A DNA stretch of 64,000 nt from Mobula hypostoma (taxonomy: Eukaryota). This document shows, in pieces, positions 6,652-54,480 of the stretch. The notes under the pieces were generated by a model. It did no database searches, was not told where the DNA came from, and saw only the letters and a program-made list of their open reading frames with translations. The stretch's first letter is position 1; the number at the start of each line of letters is the position of its first letter. The stretch lies in NCBI RefSeq assembly GCF_963921235.1, contig NC_086119.1:46748001-46812000 (forward strand), in the 5' to 3' direction. The translations under genes were made by a program, and so were the position numbers.

Positions 6652-8880
6652 ACACAAAATACTCTGCAGATGCTGGGGTCAAAGCAACACGCACAACACA
6701 ATGGAGGAACTCAGCAGATTGGACAGCACCCTTGGAAACGAACAGTCAACTTTTCTGGCCAAGACCCTTCGTCAGAACTGAAGAGGGAAGGGGCAGGGCC
6801 CTATAAGGAAAGTAGGGGAGGGTGGGAAGGAGAAGGCTGGTAGGTCCAGGTGAAAAACCAGTAAGGGGAAAGATCAAGGGGTGGGAGAGGGGAAGCAGGG
6901 AGATGATAGGCAGGAAAGATGAAGAAGGAATAGGGGAAAACACAATGGGTAGTAGAAGGAGGCAGAACCATGAGGGAGGTGATAGGCAGCTGGGGGAGGG
7001 GGCAGAGTGAAACTGGGATGGGGGAAGGGAGGGGAAGGGGATTACCGGAAGTTGGAGAATTCAATGTTCATGCCAACGGGCTGGAGACTACCCGGACGGT
7101 ATATGAGGTGTTGCTCCTCCAACCTGAGTTTAGCCTCATCATGGCAGTAGAGGAGGCCATGTATGGACATATCCGAATGGGAATGGGAAGCAGAGTGAAG
7201 TGGGTGGCTACCGGGAGATCCTGTCTGTTGTGGCGGACGGAGTGGAGGTGCTCGACGAAGCAGTCCCCCAATCTGTGTCGGGTTTCACCGATGTAGAGGA
7301 GGCCGCACCGGGAGCACCGGATGCAATAGATGACCCCAACAGACTCACAAGTGAAGTGTCGCCTCACCTGAAAGGACTGTTTGGGGCCCTGAATGGTGGT
7401 GAGAGAGGAGGTGTAGGGACAGGTGTAGCACTTACGCTTACAGGGATAAGTGCCGGGTGGGAGATCCGTGGGGAGGGACGTGTGGACCAGGGAGTTGCGG
7501 AGGGAACGATCCCTGTGGAAAGCAGAGAGGGGTGGAGAGGGAACGATATGCTTAGTAGTGGGGTCCTGTTGAAGGTGGTGGAAGTTGTGGAGGATAATGT
7601 GCTGGATCTGGAGACTGGTGGGGTGATAGGTGAGGACAAGGGGAACTCTGTCCCTGTTGTGGTGACGGGAGGATGGGGTGAGGGGCAAAGTGCGGGAAAT
7701 GGAGGAGATGCGGGTGAGGGCATCATTGATGACGGCAGAAAAGAAACCATGATCTTTAAAGAAAGAGGACATTTGAGATGTCCTGGAACAGAAAGCCTCA
7801 TCCTGGGAGCAGATACGGCAGAGACGGAGGAACTGGAAATAGAGAATAGCATTTTTGCATGTGGCAGGGTGGGAAGAGGTATAATCGAGGTAGTTATGAG
7901 AGTCAGTGGGCTTGTAGAAGATGTCAGTGGACAGTCTGTCTCCAGAGATGGAGACTGAGAGATCGAGAAAGGGGAGAGAAGTGTCCGAGATGGACCAAGT
8001 GAATTTGAGGGCTGGGTGGAAGTTAGAAGCAAAGTCGATGAAATTGACGAGCTCAGCATGGGTGCAGGAAGCAGCACCAATGTGGTTGCCAATGTTGCGA
8101 AGGAAAAGTTGGGGAGCAGTACCAGTATCATTTGGAGTATAGACTGTTCCACATAACCAACAAAGAGGCAGACATAGTTGGGGCCCATGCGAGTGCCCAC
8201 AGCTACACCCTTGGTCTGAAGAAAGTGGGAAGAGCCAAAAGAAAAGTTATTAAGTGTGAGTACCAGTTCCGCCAACCGGAGGAGGGTGGTGGTGTTGGGG
8301 AACTGGTGAGGTCTATTGTCCAGAAAGTAGCGGAGGGCTTTGAGGCCTTCTTGATGGGGAATGGAAGTGTATAAGGATTGGACGTCCATAGTGAAAATGA
8401 AGCAGTCGGGACCGGGGAACTGGAAGTTATTGAAGAGGTGGAGGGCATGGGATGTATCCCGGATGTAGGTGGGGAGGGACTGAAGTATGGGTGTCAAAAT
8501 GGAGTCTAAGTAGGCAGATACAAGTTCGGTGGGGCAGAAGCAGGCAGAAACTATTGGTCTACCGGGACAGTCAGGCTTATGGATCTTGGAGATGAGGTAA
8601 AATCGAGCAGTGCGGTGTGTGGGAATTATGAGTTTTGTGGCTGAGGATGGAAGGTCTCTGGAGTTGATAAGGGCAGTGATGGTACGGGAGACAATGGTTT
8701 GATGTTTTTTGGTGGGGTCCTGTTCCAGGGGTAAGTAAGAGGAGGTGTCAGAGAGCTGTCGTTTGGCCTCAGTGAGGTAGAGGTCCATCCACCAGACTAC
8801 TACAGCACCACCTTTGCAGATTTGATGGTGAGGTTGGGATGAGTGCGGAGAGAGTGGAGGGCAGTGTGTTCAGAGGGAGT
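6652..8880 (-). mobile_element. Penelope-like retroelement (RT + GIY-YIG endonuclease), frameshifted
   Basis: ORF 7364-8788 KIHKPDCPGRPIVS...TMDVQSLYTSIP...QTKGVAVGT; ORF 7068-7772 VIYCIRCSRCGLLYIGET. Confidence 0.93.
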
Positions 8881-16100: not shown

Positions 16101-17467
16101 ACTAAAGTCAGAATCCCTCAATGTGCAGGAACTCGAGAAGGATTGTAGAACTAGAGCATATTATCGCCACAGGTGCATTTGGAAACATAGGTGGAAACTT
16201 TAAAATTGGGGCATTGTTTAACAGAAAGCTAGAGTAGGCCAGTGAGCAGAGTAATTTTTTTATTATTGTCAAATGTATCAAGGCACTGTGTAAAACTTGC
16301 CTTACATACTGTTCACACAGAATATTTAATTACAACAGTGCATTGAGGTAGTGCAAGGTAAAGCAGCAATGGAGTGCAGAATAAAGCGTTACAGAGAAAT
16401 TGCACTGCAGGTAGATCATAAAGTGCAAGGTCATAATGAGGAAGACTGTGAGATCAAGTGTCTATCTTATTGTAAACGGGAATTGTTCAATAGCCTTATA
16501 ACAGCTGAATAGTGTCGAGTATTTAATATTTCAGTAATATTTGAGTAATCTTGTAAATGTAAGCATTCTTTGTTTAAGTAATTCATTATGGGTTACAATA
16601 TATGTAAAAGTAAGTGAATTGCGTACACCATGACACTACCATATTATATGTGCGCGCCTCACCTAAAGTAAAAACGAAGAACCATGACTTATCTCCCAAA
16701 TCACTTGTTTTCCTTTTAATTAGGTTTCATGTTTTGAAGTTACAAAACATAACAGTGGCGATGAGGTATTTTTAAAATGAACCCGATACGATTACCTACC
16801 TGTGGAAGTTCAGCGAAATATTTGTGCTTTAAAAAAAAGCAGCAGCACAGCATGTGTTCTTTGGAAGATAAGACAGAATCGAGTTTTTTTTTAATTCAGA
16901 AAACTGATGAGTTCACGTGCTAATAAACAGTGAGTACTGGGTGATAATAATTATTAAAAAAAAAGCTGACTATATTGGGAAGATTGATGCATTTGATCAC
17001 ACAGCAGATAACTGGATTTTGTATGCTGTACCAATTCTGTTGTGTGCATTGGGTTTAAAGTTGGTTTGCTGAAATGTTTGACTGCTCCAATCAAACCAGC
17101 AGAAATGAGCTTTGCTGCTATTGTGAAAGTAATGCAGGAACATTTAGAACCAAAACTATTGTTGATTGCAGAACAGTTTAGGTTTCATAAGCTGAAACAA
17201 AAGGAAGGGGAGTCCATTCTATCTTATGTGGCTGAATTGAAGAGATTGTCTGAGCATTGTCAGTTCAGTGATGGGCTTAATGTTGCACTGAGAGATCATT
17301 TAGTCTGTGGAATCTTACAAGAAATCATTCAAAAATGGCTTCTAACTGAAACACAAATATTTGAAAGAGCATTTGAATAGCTGTATTAATGGAAACAGCA
17401 GATGGAGATGCAATTGAATTGTTTTCAGTTATGAAAGTGAGCATGAACAAAATTGCAGAGTCTAGAC

Positions 17468-17532
17468 CAAGGGTTCCCAAGCTTTTATTATGCCATGGAC
17501 TCCTACCATCGACGCCAGGTTGGGAACCCCTT
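17468..17532. mobile_element. hAT-type MITE inserted in gag; relatives at 31741-31813 and 38612-38690
   Basis: TIRs caagggttccca...tgggaacccctt with 8-bp TSD GTCTAGAC/GTCTAGAT. Confidence 0.75.
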
Positions 17533-18261
17533 GTCTAGATGGTGGCCTGTGTGGCCAAACAAATTGTGCTACTGTTGTGCCAGAGGCTCACATACACCAG
17601 AACAATATAAATTTAAAGGCCAAATTTGCAGAAAATGCAACAAGGCAGGACACATACAAAGAGCATGTCAGGCAGACAAATATAAATGGACTGCACAGTG
17701 AAGAGATAAAGATAAAAAGTCAAGTTGAAGTTTCAAAAAGAACACTAATCTGAATGCTGTTGTAGAAGCTTCTGATAATGATGAGAGTGTTACAGGACTG
17801 TGTAGCCTTGAGAACTACAATGTGAAAACTAACAAAAAATGAGAAATGTGGCTTACACCAGAAATGAATGGCAAATTAATTAAAATAGAATCGGATACTG
17901 GCTCAGCTGTTTCAGTCATTCCACAACATGAGTTTGAATATTTCAAAGATACTGAACGGAAACCCTCAGATATCCAACCAAGAACTTATACTGGAGACAA
18001 GTTAATTCTGGTGGAAATTACATTTGTAGCAGTGAAATATAATAACCACCAGGTCACATTGGGCTTGTATGCGGTTAAAAACAGTACGGACATTGTTGTG
18101 GGGACTACTGAGACTACTACAACTTGATTGGCGATCCGTCCTCCATTTGCATGCCATTTTCGCGAGAGTCAACTGAAGGCAAGTTAAGAAAGATACTGGA
18201 TGATGCCACAACTGTCATCATGCTGCACACCATGAACCATTGCCTAACAGAGGGCAAATGG

Positions 18262-18885
18262 GTGTTGACGCCAACCTCTGTGCCTCTGGTTGGAAAACAT
18301 ATTGGACTAAAGAAGGACTATTTTGCTCATAGGAATCATGAAAGTAATGAAAGCAGGGGCCCAACTACAACTGTTTTTGCCAGTAACGTATCTGAGAAAG
18401 CCTCTGTATGTTAATCAGGTAGTTGCATGTGACATGTGGCTTGGTTTTAAGCTGGAAGAGAGTTCAAGGAGCTTCAAAAAAGTTGCAAGCATTCGGCTTT
18501 TGTGAGCTTAAAGAGCTCAGAATTTGCTCTGCGTGCATTATGGTTATTGCATGAACTTCAAGTGGGAGACAAAAAGATGCTGGTAAAAGTAGATGCAAAG
18601 ACCGAACCCAGCTGGGTGAATGGAAGGCCAAGAGAACTGTGTCAGTGGATATATGAAAACTGAGGAATCATCAGGTGATATTGTGGATGAGGAAATTTAG
18701 AGGAGAGATCAGTTCGTAAAGGGAGTATAAAAGAAGGATTAATAGACAATACCTCAGTGCACCTTCCCAAGATCAAGATACACATTCTAAAAAGAAGAAA
18801 AAGAGCAGGAAAAAGAGAGAAAGAAGTAGTGACTGGGAGAAGCAAGGATTGAAGTAGATTCAGAGAGAAAAACTGAGAAAAAAGG
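18262..18885 (+). pseudogene. RBM25: Processed RBM25 cDNA fragment (RRM region) inside the LTR element
   Basis: translates across frameshifts to VGKH...GPTTTVFASNVSEKAS / MLIR*L..CGLVLSWKRVQGASKKLQAFGFCE / LLHELQVGDKKMLVKVDAKT / DEEI*RRDQ / APSQDQDTHSKKKKK, matching the RBM25 N-terminus as I recall it; no introns. Confidence 0.88.
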
Positions 18886-19619
18886 AAGAAAGCTGCTCAG
18901 AGCTCTCTTGGACCGCTTCCTGCAGTCTCGGAATGTGTACAACCACCATAGAGGAGGGCCTAGAATCTGAGACTGTTTCCACAGCCACAGGTCTCACCTG
19001 CCAAGCAGAGTGACCTCCCTTGTCAAGAAAGACAGTATCCCACAAGGGCAAGGAATCCTTCACAACGATTAAATCTTTAGGCCTGAATAGGACAATTTAA
19101 AATTTGACTATGCTGTAGATGTCTATATATAGTTGTATTATATGGTATACTGTATATAGAGTTTAGATATATTCTCTATTGACTTCGAGCTGATAGCTAA
19201 GCAGGGAGGAGTGTTGTGTATTTAATATTTCAGTAATATTTGAGTAACCTTGTAAATATGTTGTCGATTAAGCATTCTTTATTTACATAACTTGTTATGG
19301 ATTATATGTAAAAATAAGTGAATTGCTACATGTGTGCCTCGCTTAAAATAAAAGCAAAGTGCATGAATTATCTTCCGACTCTTGCTTTGATTTCAATTAG
19401 TTTTAATGTATTGAAGTTACAAAATATAACAGATGGAAGCTGTCCTTGAGCCTGGTGGTATCTGCTTTCAGACTTTTGTATCTTCTGTCCAATGGAAGAG
19501 GGGAGAGGAGAGAATGTCCAGAGTGGGTGGGTCTTTGATTATGCTGGCTACTTTACTGAGCAGTGAGAAAAATAGGTAGAGTTCACGGAGGGGAGGTTGA
19601 CTTCTGTGATGTACCTATC

Positions 19620-21552: not shown

Positions 21553-23285
21553 TATAGAAACATAGAAACATAGAAAATAGGTGCAGGAGTAGGCCATTCG
21601 GCCCTTCGAGCCTGCACCGCCATTTATTATGATCATGGCTGATCATCCAACTCAGAACCCAGCCTTCCCTCCATACCCCCTGACCCCTGTAGCCACAAGG
21701 GCCATATCTAACTTCCTTTTAAACATAGCTAATGAACTGGCCTCAACAGTTTGCTGTGGCAGAGAATTCCACAGATTCACCACTCTCTGTGTGAAGAAGT
21801 TTTTCCTAACCTTGGTCCTAAAAGGCTTCCCCTCTATCCTCAAACTGTGACCCCTCGTTCTAGACCTCCCCAACATCGGGAACAATCTTCCCGCATCTAG
21901 CCTGTCCAATCCCTTTAGGATCTTATACGTTTCAATCAGATCCCCCCTCAATCTTCTAAATTCCAACGAGTACAAGCCCAGTTCATCCAGTCTTTCTTCA
22001 TATGAAAGACCTGCCATCCCAGGAATCAATCTGGTGAACCTTCTTTGTACTCCCTCTATGGCAAAGATGTCTTTCCTCAGATTAGGGGACCAAAACTGCA
22101 CACAATACTCCAGGTGTGGTCTCACCAAGGCCTTGTACAACTGCAGTAGTACCTCCCTGCTCCTGTACTCGAATCCTCTCGCTATAAATGCCAGCATACC
22201 GTTCGCCTTTTTCACCGCCTGCTGTACCTGCATGCCCACTTTCAATGACTGGTGTATAATGACACCCAGGTCTCGTTGCACCTCCCCTTTTCCTAATCGG
22301 CCACCATTCAGATAATAATCTGTTTTCCTATTTTTGCCACCAAAGTGGATAACTTCACATTTATCCACATTAAATTGCATCTGCCATGAGTTTGCCCACT
22401 CACCCAACCTATCCAAGTCACCCTGCATCCTCTTAGCATCCTCCTCACTGCTAACGCTGCCACCCAGCTTTGTGTCATCCGCAAACTTGGAGATGCTGCA
22501 TTTAATTCCCTCATCCAAGTCATTAATATATATTGTAAACAACTGGGGTCCCAGCACTGAGCCTTGCGGTACCCCACTAGTCAACGCCTGCCATTCTGAA
22601 AAGGTCCCGTTTATTCCCACTCTTTGCTTCCTGTCTGCTAACCAATTCTCCACCCACACCAATACCTTACCCCCAATACCGTGTGCTTTAAGTTTGCACA
22701 CTAATCTCCTGTGTGGGACCTTGTCAAAAGCCTTTTGAAAATCCAAATATACCACATCCACTGGTTCTCCCCTATCCAGTCTACTAGTTACATCCTCAAA
22801 AAATTCTATGAGATTCATCAGACATGATTTTCCTTTCACAAATCCATGCTGACTTTGTCCGATCATTTCACCGCTTTCCAAATGTGCTGTTATCACATCC
22901 TTGATAACTGACTCCAGCAGTTTCCCCACCACCGACGTTAGGCTAACCGGCCTATAATTCCCCGGTTTCTCTCTCCCTCCTTTTTTAAAAAGTGGGGTTA
23001 CATTAGCCACCCTCCAATCCTCAGGAACTAGTCCAGAATCTAACGAGTTTTGAAAAATTATCACTAATGCATCCACTATTTCTTGGGCCACTTCCTTAAG
23101 CACTCTGGGATGCAGACCATCTGGCCCTGGGGATTTATCTGCCTTCAATCCCTTCAATTTACCTAACACCACTTCCCTACTAACATGTATTTCGCTCAGT
23201 TCCTCCATCTCACTGGACCCTCTGTCCCTTACTATTTCTGGAAGATTATTTATGTCCTCCTTAGTGAAGACAGAACCAAAGTAAT
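21553..23285 (-). mobile_element. Young 5'-truncated CR1 LINE with uninterrupted 518-aa RT ORF
   Basis: KSPGPDG, NYRPVSLTS, DFQKAFDKVPH, GVPQGSVLGP, FADD; tail repeat (catagaaa)n. Confidence 0.95.
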
Positions 23286-26171
23286 ATTATATTGGGATAG
23301 TCCCAAATCATATGCTACCTTTCCAAACAGAGGGGCACAATGAGTTTCAGGACTGTGGTAAGAATACAAGAAGATGGGAGCAGGAGCATTTGGTCCCACA
23401 GATCTGATCTGTTATTCAACGCAATCATGGTAGATCATCTGCTCTGTGCCTGTTTCAAATAGCCTGCAATTTGCATCTTAATGTATGAAAGGTGCTATGT
23501 AAGTAAAGTTATTATTATTAATTCCCTGATCTTTTAGATAGAGATCTGCTTCCTCTTATGTTACTCTAATGATCTAGAATTCTCAATTCTCTAGAATAGA
23601 GAATTCCCAAGATTTACCGATTTCTATAAGAACGTGGGTTTCTAGAGTTCTGGCAGTAATGCAGCCTTACTGCGAGGTATGACAAGGAATTGTGTTTGAC
23701 CAACTGGGCGAACAAGGAACTCGGGCAGCAGCATATCAGAATTGAAACAAATCAGAAAAAGCTGGAAACACTCAGCAGGTCAGTCAGCATCTGCAGTGAG
23801 AGAAACAGAATAAATATTTCAGGATCAAACCCGGGTCTTGTGCGGCATTAGCACTTACTGCTGCTCCTCCATTGCCACCCAGTATTTACAAAGAGAAGAT
23901 GTATGTTTGGATGCACAAGTTTGCAAGTGCTGGAATCTGGAGCAACAAACAAGATGCTGGAGGGAAAACTACAGAGAAGCATCTGTGCAGGAAATGGACA
24001 GCTGACATTTCAGGCCAAGACCTTTCAGCGGAGTTGAAAGACAGAGGGGAGGTAGCCAGATTTACCTTTACCTGTTTTACATCTGCATGAGCTGTGCTAC
24101 TTGTGAACTCATGGGACAACAGTCCTAAGTTTGTATCATTTCTTTCAAATGGAAGGCTGCAGGCCTGTTAGTGGGCCAGTTTTACCATAATGCCCATCCT
24201 CACTGGGGCTCCCCTTGCAGGACTTCATGTCCCTTACCCAGGAGACTATTGAATTGGTTCAGTTAAACACTTAGTAAACCAAAACAAACCTAATGAGTTG
24301 TTATTTTAAGAGGTCATCCAACTGGATTTACATCAGAATCAAGTTTATTATCTCTGACATATGTCACAAAATCTGTTGTTTTCTGGCACCAGTACAGTGC
24401 ATGAGAAAAACATTGTTATAAGTTAGAATAAATGAATAGTGTGAAAGAGGAATAGTGAGCTAGGGTTCAGGGGATCATGGACCATTCAGAGATCTGATGA
24501 CTGAGGGGAAGAAGCTATTCCTTAAGCATTGGGCACGGGTCTTTAGGCTCCCTGATAGTATTAATGAGAAGACGATATATCCCGGATCCTTGATGATGGA
24601 TTCCACTATTTGAAGATGTCCTTGACGTAGGCAACGGTTGTGTTCATGATGGGACTGGCTAAGTGTACAGTTTCAATCCTGCACATTGGAGTCTAATACC
24701 GAGCAATAATGCAACCAGTCAGAATGCTCTCCACCATACATCTGCTAGTCATTGGTGACACGCCAGATTTCCTCAACTTCAGACCGTTCAGCAATAATTG
24801 TGAGGTTGCCGTGCATCATAATACAGTGCTGGGAGAATGTAATCAGACATGGCATGGATCTCTGAATCTCTGCAATATGGCTTAACATAACCAATTATGC
24901 ATGGCTGGTAAAGGCTCCACAGAGCTTTAATTGGAAAACCACCAACTATTTATGTTCAATGAGGCTTCACACATTCATTGCTAATGGTCCTCCTCTATTT
25001 GTACGGTTTCAATTGCCTGGTTGTCCTTTTCAAAATCAAACACAGATTAGTTTGTGAGTTGACTGCCCTTAGGGTTGTTCACTTTTTCTCCGATCTGCAG
25101 AAGCTGGGGATCATTAAGAGTGTTTCTGAGCTTGGATTTTCTCCAAAGACAGGCTACTTGCATGGTAATGTCATTACTAAGATTTTGCTGGTGTCTGATT
25201 AAAATATGGTTGAAATGTGGAGAGCTATGAAATAATATATCTAGCACAGCTGTTTATCTAAATGTGCCACTAATGTAACCTGAACATTGCCTAAGTAAGT
25301 TGAAACAACTGAACATCTTCAAGATTTATCAATATATTGCATATTTTCACAGTTTACTTAAGTATTAACAAGATCTGTTGAACCAGCTTGTTTGTTAATG
25401 GAAGTATTTGCATTTTGAATAAAAGTATTAGACAAATATGTTATTAACATGTTAAAGGCAAGCATGTAAGATATTTGCTAAGTTGATTGAGGTATTAACT
25501 AGGTTAAATGAAATGCATGTAAAATGTTTAAGTTGTGTATCTTGATTACCAGAGGCTTCTTAAAACAACAGGTACAGCTGCCCAACACTGTGCATTCTGT
25601 GTCCTGATTTGCACCATCTCATTGACCACTGCTCCTGTCCACAGTGACCTACAGCAGGTTCAGTAGCAATACTTTTATTTAGAAATTCTCCTCCTTGGAT
25701 TAGATTTCCCTCATTACCTGTTCCTTTCCTATGTAAACTCCTTCAATCCTAGAACTTGCTGAAATTAAGTCTTCCTGCTCTTTCTTGGACCACATCAGCC
25801 AAGAAGCTTCCAGCTTTGGAATTGCCTCTCAAAATCTGCATCTTCTGAGAATGGCATCTTTATCCTACAATTGTGCATGACTTTGGTCAAGTATTTCCTG
25901 ATGTCAATGGCAGTCACTCTTAGCACTGGAGTTTAGCTTTTTGATCCATGGTGTGGCAGTGTCTAGAGCTGAGTGGTCCTGGCATAATCTAAATTGAACG
26001 CACTGTTATTGACACCTTTCCTTACCCGGTTGAGGAGTTAGAGTAGAAATGTGGTGGGACAGACCAGATTGGTTTTGACCCACTTTCAGTGACTTGGGTT
26101 AATTCCTGACTTTGTGTGGGTTTCCGCCGGTTCCTACAACATTGCAAAAAAAACTGTCAGTACTCCTTTAA

Positions 26172-53174: not shown

Positions 53175-54480
53175 ACCGGAAGTTTGAGAAATTAATGTTC
53201 ATGCCATTAGGTTCGAGGTACCCAGACAGAATATAAGGTTTTGCTCCTCCAACCTGAGTGTGGTCTCATCGCAACAGTAGCGGAGGCCATGGACTGACAT
53301 GTCAGAATGGGAAGTGGAATTAAAATGGGTGGCCGCTGGGAAATCCGGCTTTTCGTCCAGCAGATGGATCACAGATGCTGGCAAAGCTGTCTCTCAGTCT
53401 ACATTGGATCTCACTGATATACAGGAGGCCACACTGGGAGCACCAGATACAGTAGATGACCCCCAACAGACTCGCAGGTGAAGTGTAGCCTCACCTGGAA
53501 GGACTGTTTGGGGCTCTGAACGGTAATGAAGGAGGTGGAGTATGGGCTGTTGTAGTACTTGTTTCACTTGCAAGAATAAGTGCCAGGATGGAGCTCAGTG
53601 GGGAGGGACGAATGGACAAGGGACGTAGGAAATGATTCCTGGGGAAAGCAGAAAGCAAGAGGGAGGGAAAGATGTGCTTGGTGGTGGGGTCCTATTGGAG
53701 ATGGCGGAAGTTACGGAGAATTATGTGCTGAAATTGGAGGCTGGTGGGGTGGTAGGTGAGGACAAGAGGAACTCTATCCATGGTGGGGTGGTGGGAGGAT
53801 GGGGTGAGGGCAGATGGAAGAGATGCGGTTGAGGGGAGCATTGATGGTGCAGGAAGGGAAACCCCTTTCTTTGATGGAAGAGGACATCTCCTTAGTTCTG
53901 GAATGGAAAGCCTCATCCTGAGAACAGATGTGGCAGAGACGGAGGGAATGAGAGATGACATTTTTACAAGAAAGAAGGTGGGAAGAGGTATAGTCCAGGT
54001 AGCCGTGAGAATCAGTGGGTTTATAAAAGATATCAGTGGATTAGCTGTCTCCAGAGATAGAGACAGACAGATCGAGAAAGGAGAGGGAGGTGTCAGAAAT
54101 GGACCAGGTAAATTTGAGGGCAGGGTGGAAGTTGAAGGCAAAGTTGATGAAGTCGACAGCTCACACCAATACAGTTGATGTAGTGTAGGAAAAGTTGGGG
54201 AGTGATACGGTGTAGGCTTGGAACATAGACTGTTCCATGTAGCCGACAAATAGGCAGGTATAACTGAGACCCATGTGAGTGCCCATGGCTACACCTTTTG
54301 TTTGAAGGAAAAGGGAAGAGCCAAAGGAGAAATTATTCAGTGAGGACAAGTTCCACCAGATGGAGGAGAGTGTTGGTGGGTCTGGTGTCTAGAAAGAAAC
54401 GGAGAACTTTGAGGACTTCCTGGTGGGGGATGGAGGTGTATAGAGACTGGACATTCATGGGGAAAATTAGACGATCGAGT
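53175..54480 (-). mobile_element. Penelope-like fragment inserted in Gypsy pol
   Basis: LNNFSFGSSLFLQTKGVAMGT and RVPLVLTYHP; homologous to 7040-8410. Confidence 0.88.

Follow-up and report, generated by a model that had tools for sequence, protein, structure and literature searches.

The window, by which we mean the whole 64,000-nucleotide stretch of the Mobula hypostoma genome analysed here (NCBI RefSeq assembly GCF_963921235.1, contig NC_086119.1, positions 46,748,001 to 46,812,000, forward strand), holds at its positions 16513-19431 one dead, decayed copy of a Gypsy-type long terminal repeat (LTR) retrotransposon that carries a spliced piece of the host mRNA for the splicing factor RBM25. 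An earlier reading made from the letters alone (the sequence-only reading) had given these limits, and they proved exact: the LTRs, both on the plus strand, begin with TG and end with CA at 16513-16754 (5') and 19212-19431 (3'). As direct repeats of each other they are 84% alike, and the LTR-LTR divergence that had been proposed for dating comes to a Kimura two-parameter (K2P) distance of 0.178. Outside them lies what is likely a decayed 5-bp target-site duplication (TSD), 16508-16512 paired with 19432-19436, in which three of five bases match and both mismatches are transitions, 5 bp being the TSD length of the family. Behind the 5' LTR comes the primer binding site (PBS; 16756-16766, plus strand), complementary at 10 of 11 positions to the 3' end of the host tRNA-Ser(GCT) together with the CCA that is added to tRNA 3' ends; a genome pattern search with the PBS-complementary site gave 16 matches against 1 for the control, and ARAGORN called five of five PBS-matching loci tRNA-Ser(GCT).

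The coding parts that follow are all on the plus strand and all decayed. A gag with a CCHC zinc knuckle (16960-17700, limits approximate) is collinear with sibling copies and matches Pfam below its cut-off (Retrotrans_gag, E 0.007; zf-CCHC, E 0.0015), and an aspartic protease with the linker up to the start of reverse transcriptase (RT) occupies 17843-18203, collinear with pol-bearing siblings; the window's own protease gave no Pfam match and was identified from the D-T-G motif in frame at 17843 and from sibling frames. Beyond the RBM25 sequence stand an integrase C-terminal tail (18892-19085, end approximate), which runs on from the integrase in the pol-bearing copies L071, L074 and L077, and a polypurine tract (PPT; 19199-19211), recognised from its sequence and identical in siblings. 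The order LTR-PBS-gag-protease, then integrase tail, PPT and LTR, is as the sequence-only reading had it: the element keeps its LTRs, PBS, PPT and gag-protease, RT and the integrase core being absent.

The cargo itself, window 18204-18891, is a sense-strand, spliced RBM25 cDNA equal to mRNA 162-769 plus 1140-1233. Its first part (18204-18801, plus strand) covers mRNA 162-769, that is, residues ~50-251 with the RNA recognition motif (RRM) and a 48-nt exon, and joins five exon junctions; its second, Arg/Glu-rich part (18802-18891, plus strand; mRNA 1140-1233) stands behind a 370-nt secondary deletion and joins one more. The blocks of the first part are 79-96% identical to the parent gene, and gar RBM25 matches the window by tblastn with E 7e-25. 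Pfam and PDB searches with the window's own RRM fragment were uninformative, and the identification also goes through the parent gene and sibling frames: the long open frame of sibling L014 has RRM_1 above the Pfam cut-off and matched 216 proteins, and among the 120 matches listed all have an RRM Pfam entry and nearly all are named RBM25. The insert had been placed at about 18262-18885; its presence there stands, and its limits do not, since it starts 58 nt earlier, the overlooked stretch before 18262 consisting of 10 nt of one exon and the whole 48-nt exon. As had been said of it, the copy is broken: read in the frame of the parent it has four stops, and there are several indels of 1-2 nt.

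The parent RBM25 of this genome, located with the RBM25 C-terminus as query, is an intron-bearing gene on the minus strand at G000:C1:99.79-99.84 Mb, in which 11 of 11 mapped exons have AG/GT ends and together make one open frame. PWI family matches in G000, tried as parent candidates, turned out to be other genes, two loci on C76 being only ~30% alike to RBM25. Six exon junctions of the parent are joined in the window copy (18213/4, 18261/2, 18431/2, 18489/90, 18649/50 and 18863/4), so that the insert is indeed spliced. On the upstream side of the parent's mapped coding exons there are also two LTRs of the same element family (G000:C1 near 99876650-99876890 and 99906400-99906640), which are likely solo LTRs, because no internal sequence matched beside them. 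The 48-nt in-frame exon (parent G000:C1:99832633-99832586, window 18214-18261) has AG/GT ends, and no motif resembling it was found in the 122 proteins examined, 120 of them RBM25 matches; a protein search for longer proteins with this exon gave none, a weak negative. The copies may therewith preserve a lineage-specific or alternative RBM25 isoform.

The full cargo of the family is 1,072 nt long (residues ~50-406) and joins eight exon junctions, and two siblings, L012 and L020, retain all of it. The sequence-only reading had described an RRM followed by an internal jump to the Arg/Glu-rich part; the jump is real, from mRNA 769 to 1140 at window 18801/2, and it is a later deletion within a longer captured piece and not a feature of the capture, because L012 and L020 hold mRNA 162-1233 in one alignment.

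Both ends of the cargo fall in short runs shared between element and mRNA. The 5' switch point (18204-18210, plus strand) is a 7-nt microhomology between element pol and RBM25 mRNA, seen as shared runs in siblings: pol-bearing places, of which an RT-start search from one sibling gave 150 scored ones, share the element sequence to 18210 and then run on into pol, and an exact shared run of at least 7 nt is present in 24 of 29 pol-bearing copies, for which the null probability is 7e-4. The 3' switch point (18883-18891, plus strand) is a purine microhomology of 9-10 nt, two bases of which differ in the window copy; among 16 copies whose integrase tail is native, 13 have an exact shared run of at least 9 nt (null probability 8e-5, computed within the purine-rich part). 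The 5' join preserves the pol reading frame, and at the 3' join the RBM25 frame is out of register with the integrase tail. Between the same two points L071, a pol-bearing copy with both LTRs, has 2,483 nt that hold RNase H and integrase domains, so the RBM25 cargo stands in place of ~2.5 kb of RT, RNase H and integrase. In L071, RT_RNaseH_2 (E 7e-9) precedes Integrase_H2C2 (E 4e-8) and rve (below the cut-off), which is the Gypsy order. Two fragments of its RT gave no Pfam match, and it is read as RT from its motifs; by the pol order protease-RT-RNase H-integrase the element is Ty3/Gypsy. The template switching onto co-packaged mRNA proposed by the sequence-only reading is thus supported as an interpretation of the anatomy, with both ends in sequence shared with pol-bearing siblings.

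The same ends bear on whether the RBM25 sequence began as a retrocopy made by a LINE and inserted into an LTR element that lost pol by a separate deletion, the product then being multiplied. There are LINE reverse-transcriptase frames in the window, and a poly(A) tail and TSD, had they existed, could have been removed by later deletions. Against this, the window insert has no poly(A) and no flanking duplication of its own, as had been noted at the outset; both cargo ends lie within the coding region, none of 90 copies going past mRNA 1246; both fall exactly in microhomology with the element; and an insertion plus two precise deletions would be needed in place of one template-switching event. 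We regard such an origin as scarcely credible.

The insert is not unique. A 26-nt pattern across the chimeric 5' junction, from which the non-chimeric version differs at five positions, matched the genome at 880 sites with up to two mismatches, and the non-chimeric junction matched at 1,892 (controls 0 in both cases); all of 70 junction loci examined run on into RBM25. The sequence-only reading had held that this non-autonomous element may have amplified its cargo; with 880 matches and separate TSDs in some copies, mass amplification did occur. Since 12 of 20 copies collected without use of the junction would pass the junction pattern, the family should have some 1,470 members, and a binomial correction for 9-13% decay gives an extrapolated 1,500-2,700 chimeric copies. 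An integrase-tail search returned 2,057 matches, and of 30 sampled loci six are chimeric; altogether the chimera makes up 20-32% of the sampled internal-domain copies. Among these 30 tail-sampled loci no sibling has the same pol deletion without the RBM25 cargo, and no other captured host mRNA was seen, one locus (L184) being unclassified. There is a second, cargo-free deletion type, which joins the integrase zinc-finger region to the very purine site where RBM25 rejoins the element (L163, L164, L166, L174, L177 and L189, six of the 30 tail loci, and also L042, L047, L073 and L088); the purine site is therefore a switching hotspot.

All chimeric copies examined from outside the junction search begin alike: 20 of 20 start at mRNA 151-170, 13 of them at 162. 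At the other end, 25 of 90 copies reach mRNA 1230-1246, and the eight exon junctions are crossed, in order, by 83, 87, 84, 82, 75, 17, 16 and 26 of the 90. A tail could be recognised in 63 copies: 30 of them end through the final two exons of the captured piece, 29 have a short form and four another one; from such recurring deletion types we infer further copying rounds after capture. One locus, L020/L041 (G000:C62:54819172-54822812), has protease and RT start, then a repeat of the ~46 nt that precede the junction, and goes on as a full-length RBM25 chimera; it may have arisen by recombination between helper and chimera templates. Annotated protease-RBM25 fusions were looked for among proteins, and the search gave two plain Gypsy proteins only, a weak negative.

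Both LTRs are present in 8 of 40 longer loci. The 5-bp flanks of these eight copies match at 5 of 5 bases in two, at 4 of 5 in two, at 2 of 5 in three and at none in one, with a mean flank match of 0.60 at 5 bp against 0.34 at 4 bp and 0.27 at 6 bp. Among 80 copies there is no near-identical pair, the mean pairwise distance being 0.18. Because of these 5-bp flank matches and the lack of near-identical pairs, the copies are indicated to be separate integrations and not products of segmental duplication. Their LTR-LTR distances average 0.21 (range 0.13-0.28, n=8), and two pol-bearing copies have 0.23 and 0.27; the burst of the chimera would be of the same age as the pol-bearing copies. A protease-region tree, built on the 81 of 119 rows that were of sufficient length, is star-like; its end branches have a median length of 0.12, and chimeric copies are mixed with pol-bearing ones (15 label changes, where shuffling gave a mean of 17.4 and 31 of 500 shuffles were as low). 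Its shape fits one burst from nearly identical templates.

Copies of the element sequence also occur beyond this genome. The RBM25 part is covered by DNA contigs from four further organism labels (B, C, D and F; E and G-L, with small word shares, are left out of the count), and in organism D two contigs bridge the 5' junction. Because pieces from D (92%) and B (97-99%) resemble the window copy itself, they suggest that the window insertion predates the split from B and D. In four runs guessed to be RNA, one of them probably DNA, none of the pieces listed spans the 5' junction with 31 bases to either side; contigs of the guessed-RNA runs cover the stretch, but parent mRNA is there indistinguishable from the copies.

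The cargo decays neutrally. We analysed 80 copies (10 of 90 were dropped for covering less than 300 nt) over 200 codons, of which 57 were dropped for CpG or majority differences, leaving 143 clean codons. Changes relative to the parent have a non-synonymous to synonymous ratio of 1.11 (95% interval 0.96-1.29), stops number 110 against 106 expected, and no copy of the 80 has an unbroken frame over the 200 codons, so that the open frame and purifying selection expected of a functional transduced gene were not found on the captured RBM25 in these copies. No frameshift in the RRM part is found in more than 5 of 80 copies, except for an indel bordering a purine run, which 19 of the 80 have. In the templates that replicated, the RRM part was probably still an open frame, because no RRM-part frameshift is widely shared; quick amplification after capture predicts the same. 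Where most copies differ from the parent, 21 sites are synonymous and 7 other (2 of these at CpG), a pattern to be expected if the parent stayed constrained while the copies did not, its direction being unpolarised without an outgroup. There are 47 sites of intermediate frequency, many of them CpG-like.

The open templates and the frame-preserving 5' join, a 1-in-3 outcome by chance, are what one would look for if the cargo had acted as a protein, with an in-frame Gag-protease-RBM25 (RRM plus Arg/Glu-rich) fusion releasing a truncated splicing factor that protected, exported or packaged the element RNA. By analogy this would resemble the gag-onc fusions of acutely transforming retroviruses, which were selected for host protein activity in somatic infection. 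The sequence-only reading had drawn the parallel with oncogene capture, and in structure it holds: there, too, spliced host coding sequence stands in frame behind gag-protease, with pol lost and a helper required. It does not extend to a benefit or function of the cargo, none having been found, and unlike those viruses this is a germline Gypsy element in which we saw no env and no selection signal on the cargo. The large share of chimeras among the sampled copies would also suit a protein benefit, as would the RRM half being kept far oftener than the Arg/Glu half (junctions crossed by 75-87 versus 16-26 of 90 copies), but the latter is accounted for by repeat-guided deletion. Among non-CpG variants with a frequency of 15-50%, 13 are non-synonymous and 4 synonymous, and the only two variant sites linked beyond Bonferroni correction (codons 57 and 66) as well as the two tied to structural subtype (codons 246 and 247) are all non-synonymous; together with the absence of a single unbroken frame, this makes the protein reading quite improbable.

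A benefit at the RNA level would require that an RBM25 look-alike makes the host weaken its small-RNA silencing of the element, or that element PIWI-interacting RNAs (piRNAs) are turned on RBM25. A precedent comes from Drosophila, where telomeric elements capture genes (Son et al. 2026, PMC13534243): eight of nine captures are reported to be of piRNA-pathway genes, and captured host regions to have evolved faster. In our family the parent differs from most copies at 21 of 132 synonymous sites (0.16) versus a copy decay of 0.10 per site. This gap is small, however, compares different site classes and is also expected if capture preceded the burst; moreover, RBM25 is a splicing factor that nothing we found places in the piRNA pathway, and non-chimeric copies outnumber chimeric ones about 2:1. 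We consider an RNA benefit very improbable. The wider proposal that a Gypsy element weaponised RBM25, either the in-frame fusion or the RBM25-like RNA having given an enzyme-less chimera an edge over other defective derivatives, we hold to be unlikely. Were it true, few LTR elements in a vertebrate germline would have amplified host coding sequence to this extent, and this would be a germline counterpart of oncogene transduction. We read the cargo as a passenger without shown function or benefit, the power for the replicating phase being low.

We are therefore left with a dead Gypsy-type copy in which 1,072 nt of spliced RBM25 replace ~2.5 kb of pol, likely captured once and then likely amplified in trans as a passenger, an explanation that we regard as highly probable. 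In the proposed sequence of events, RBM25 mRNA would have been packaged together with element RNA into a particle, where reverse transcriptase would have switched to the RBM25 mRNA in the first short shared run and returned in the second, so that 1.07 kb of mRNA took the place of 2.5 kb of pol. Because the product keeps LTRs, PBS, PPT and gag-protease and has no RT or integrase core, it was presumably mobilised in trans: with all its cis signals it would have been copied by the enzymes of pol-bearing relatives during the family burst and spread to the estimated 1,500-2,700 sites, its purine-rich cargo being serially deleted in later copying rounds; after the burst all copies decayed. Several points weigh against this account. 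Any copy number above 880 is an extrapolation, and four of the eight TSDs match at only 0-2 of 5 bases. With a hotspot at the 3' site, the 3' join could have arisen repeatedly, and the protease tree cannot show monophyly of the chimera, so that a single origin would follow from the shared junction. The neutral ratio mostly reflects changes that followed insertion and is little guide to the replicating phase. Finally, we saw no autonomous helper that is intact: L071, the pol-bearing copy that was translated, is broken into short frames.

The mechanism of capture is known; the scale of amplification is unusual. For the LTR-mediated retrocopies of animals, Tan et al. (2016, PMC5131818) describe the mechanism and chimeras of few copies. 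Our family resembles them in that a partial spliced mRNA replaces internal open reading frames with both LTRs kept and no L1 hallmarks, in the junction microsimilarity (median 6 bp there, 7 and 9-10 here), in one preferred return site, as for BLASTOPIA, and in secondary retroposition; the sequence features of that class are all present, co-transcription being a prediction. Unlike those cases, one capture gave rise here to at least 880 copies, among which there are deletion subtypes, and the chimera amounts to roughly between one fifth and one third of the element family, is old and is common to several organism labels. Maize Bs1, as presented in PMC5131818, is likewise a non-autonomous LTR element in which host exons replace pol and all copies share the switch points, but it has 1-5 copies, three parent genes and a reported functional hybrid protein, whereas the RBM25 family comes from a single parent gene, outnumbers Bs1 in copies hundreds of times over and shows no sign of function. 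As in the Drosophila TART-like elements (PMC13534243), a fragment of a host gene multiplied here together with an active retroelement family; those elements are non-LTR, with fragments of 140-235 bp mostly from piRNA genes and with small-RNA evidence, whereas ours is an LTR element with 1 kb of a splicing factor, known from its sequence.

Our literature search found no paper on an RBM25-carrying element family, which repeat databases (Repbase, Dfam) or supplements could hold. Papers on RBM25 with retrotransposons gave nothing on such a family by title or by the opening of the abstract, and none was found on RBM25 with cartilaginous fish. RBM25 is not named in the main text of the Vertebrate Genomes Project (VGP) preprints or the mobulid genome preprint, nor in the supplements examined of PMC13320880; the per-species parent-gene supplements of the retrocopy preprint, outside this search, may name it. 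Retrocopy surveys that proceed as the methods of PMC13320880 describe discard copies that are repeat-masked or lie close together. The most retrocopied cartilaginous-fish genes listed in 10.64898/2026.06.26.734816 are MIPOL1, SUDS3, SDF2L1, SLU7 and ZNF276; these do not belong to the typical housekeeping genes, and elements might have amplified them as cargo, too.

Other repeats share the window with the chimera. Within its gag, a 65-nt secondary insertion at 17468-17532, across which sibling alignments are interrupted, has terminal inverted repeats and an 8-bp TSD (7 of 8 matching), and we take it from its signature to be a hAT-type miniature inverted-repeat transposable element. At 21652-23286 on the minus strand lies a 544-aa open LINE reverse-transcriptase frame, presumably CR1-like and far better preserved than the LTR element; the frames at 7068-8869 and 53692-54288, both on the minus strand, are by their motifs presumably Penelope-like reverse transcriptase and GIY-YIG-like frames. 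A GC-rich tandem array of ~33-nt units with repetitive open frames on both strands occupies ~1200-1550.

For the biology of such elements, the RBM25 family means that LTR-mediated mRNA capture can found a family of a thousand or more copies with ~1 kb of host coding sequence, which matters for retrocopy surveys of the kind just mentioned, in which such copies are discarded, and for the annotation of RBM25-like pseudogenes. The copies are at once a dated fossil of an old transcript, including the 48-nt exon, and a neutral yardstick against which the constraint on the parent can be measured, as the 21 synonymous versus 7 other majority differences illustrate, and insertions shared between organisms could serve as phylogenetic markers.

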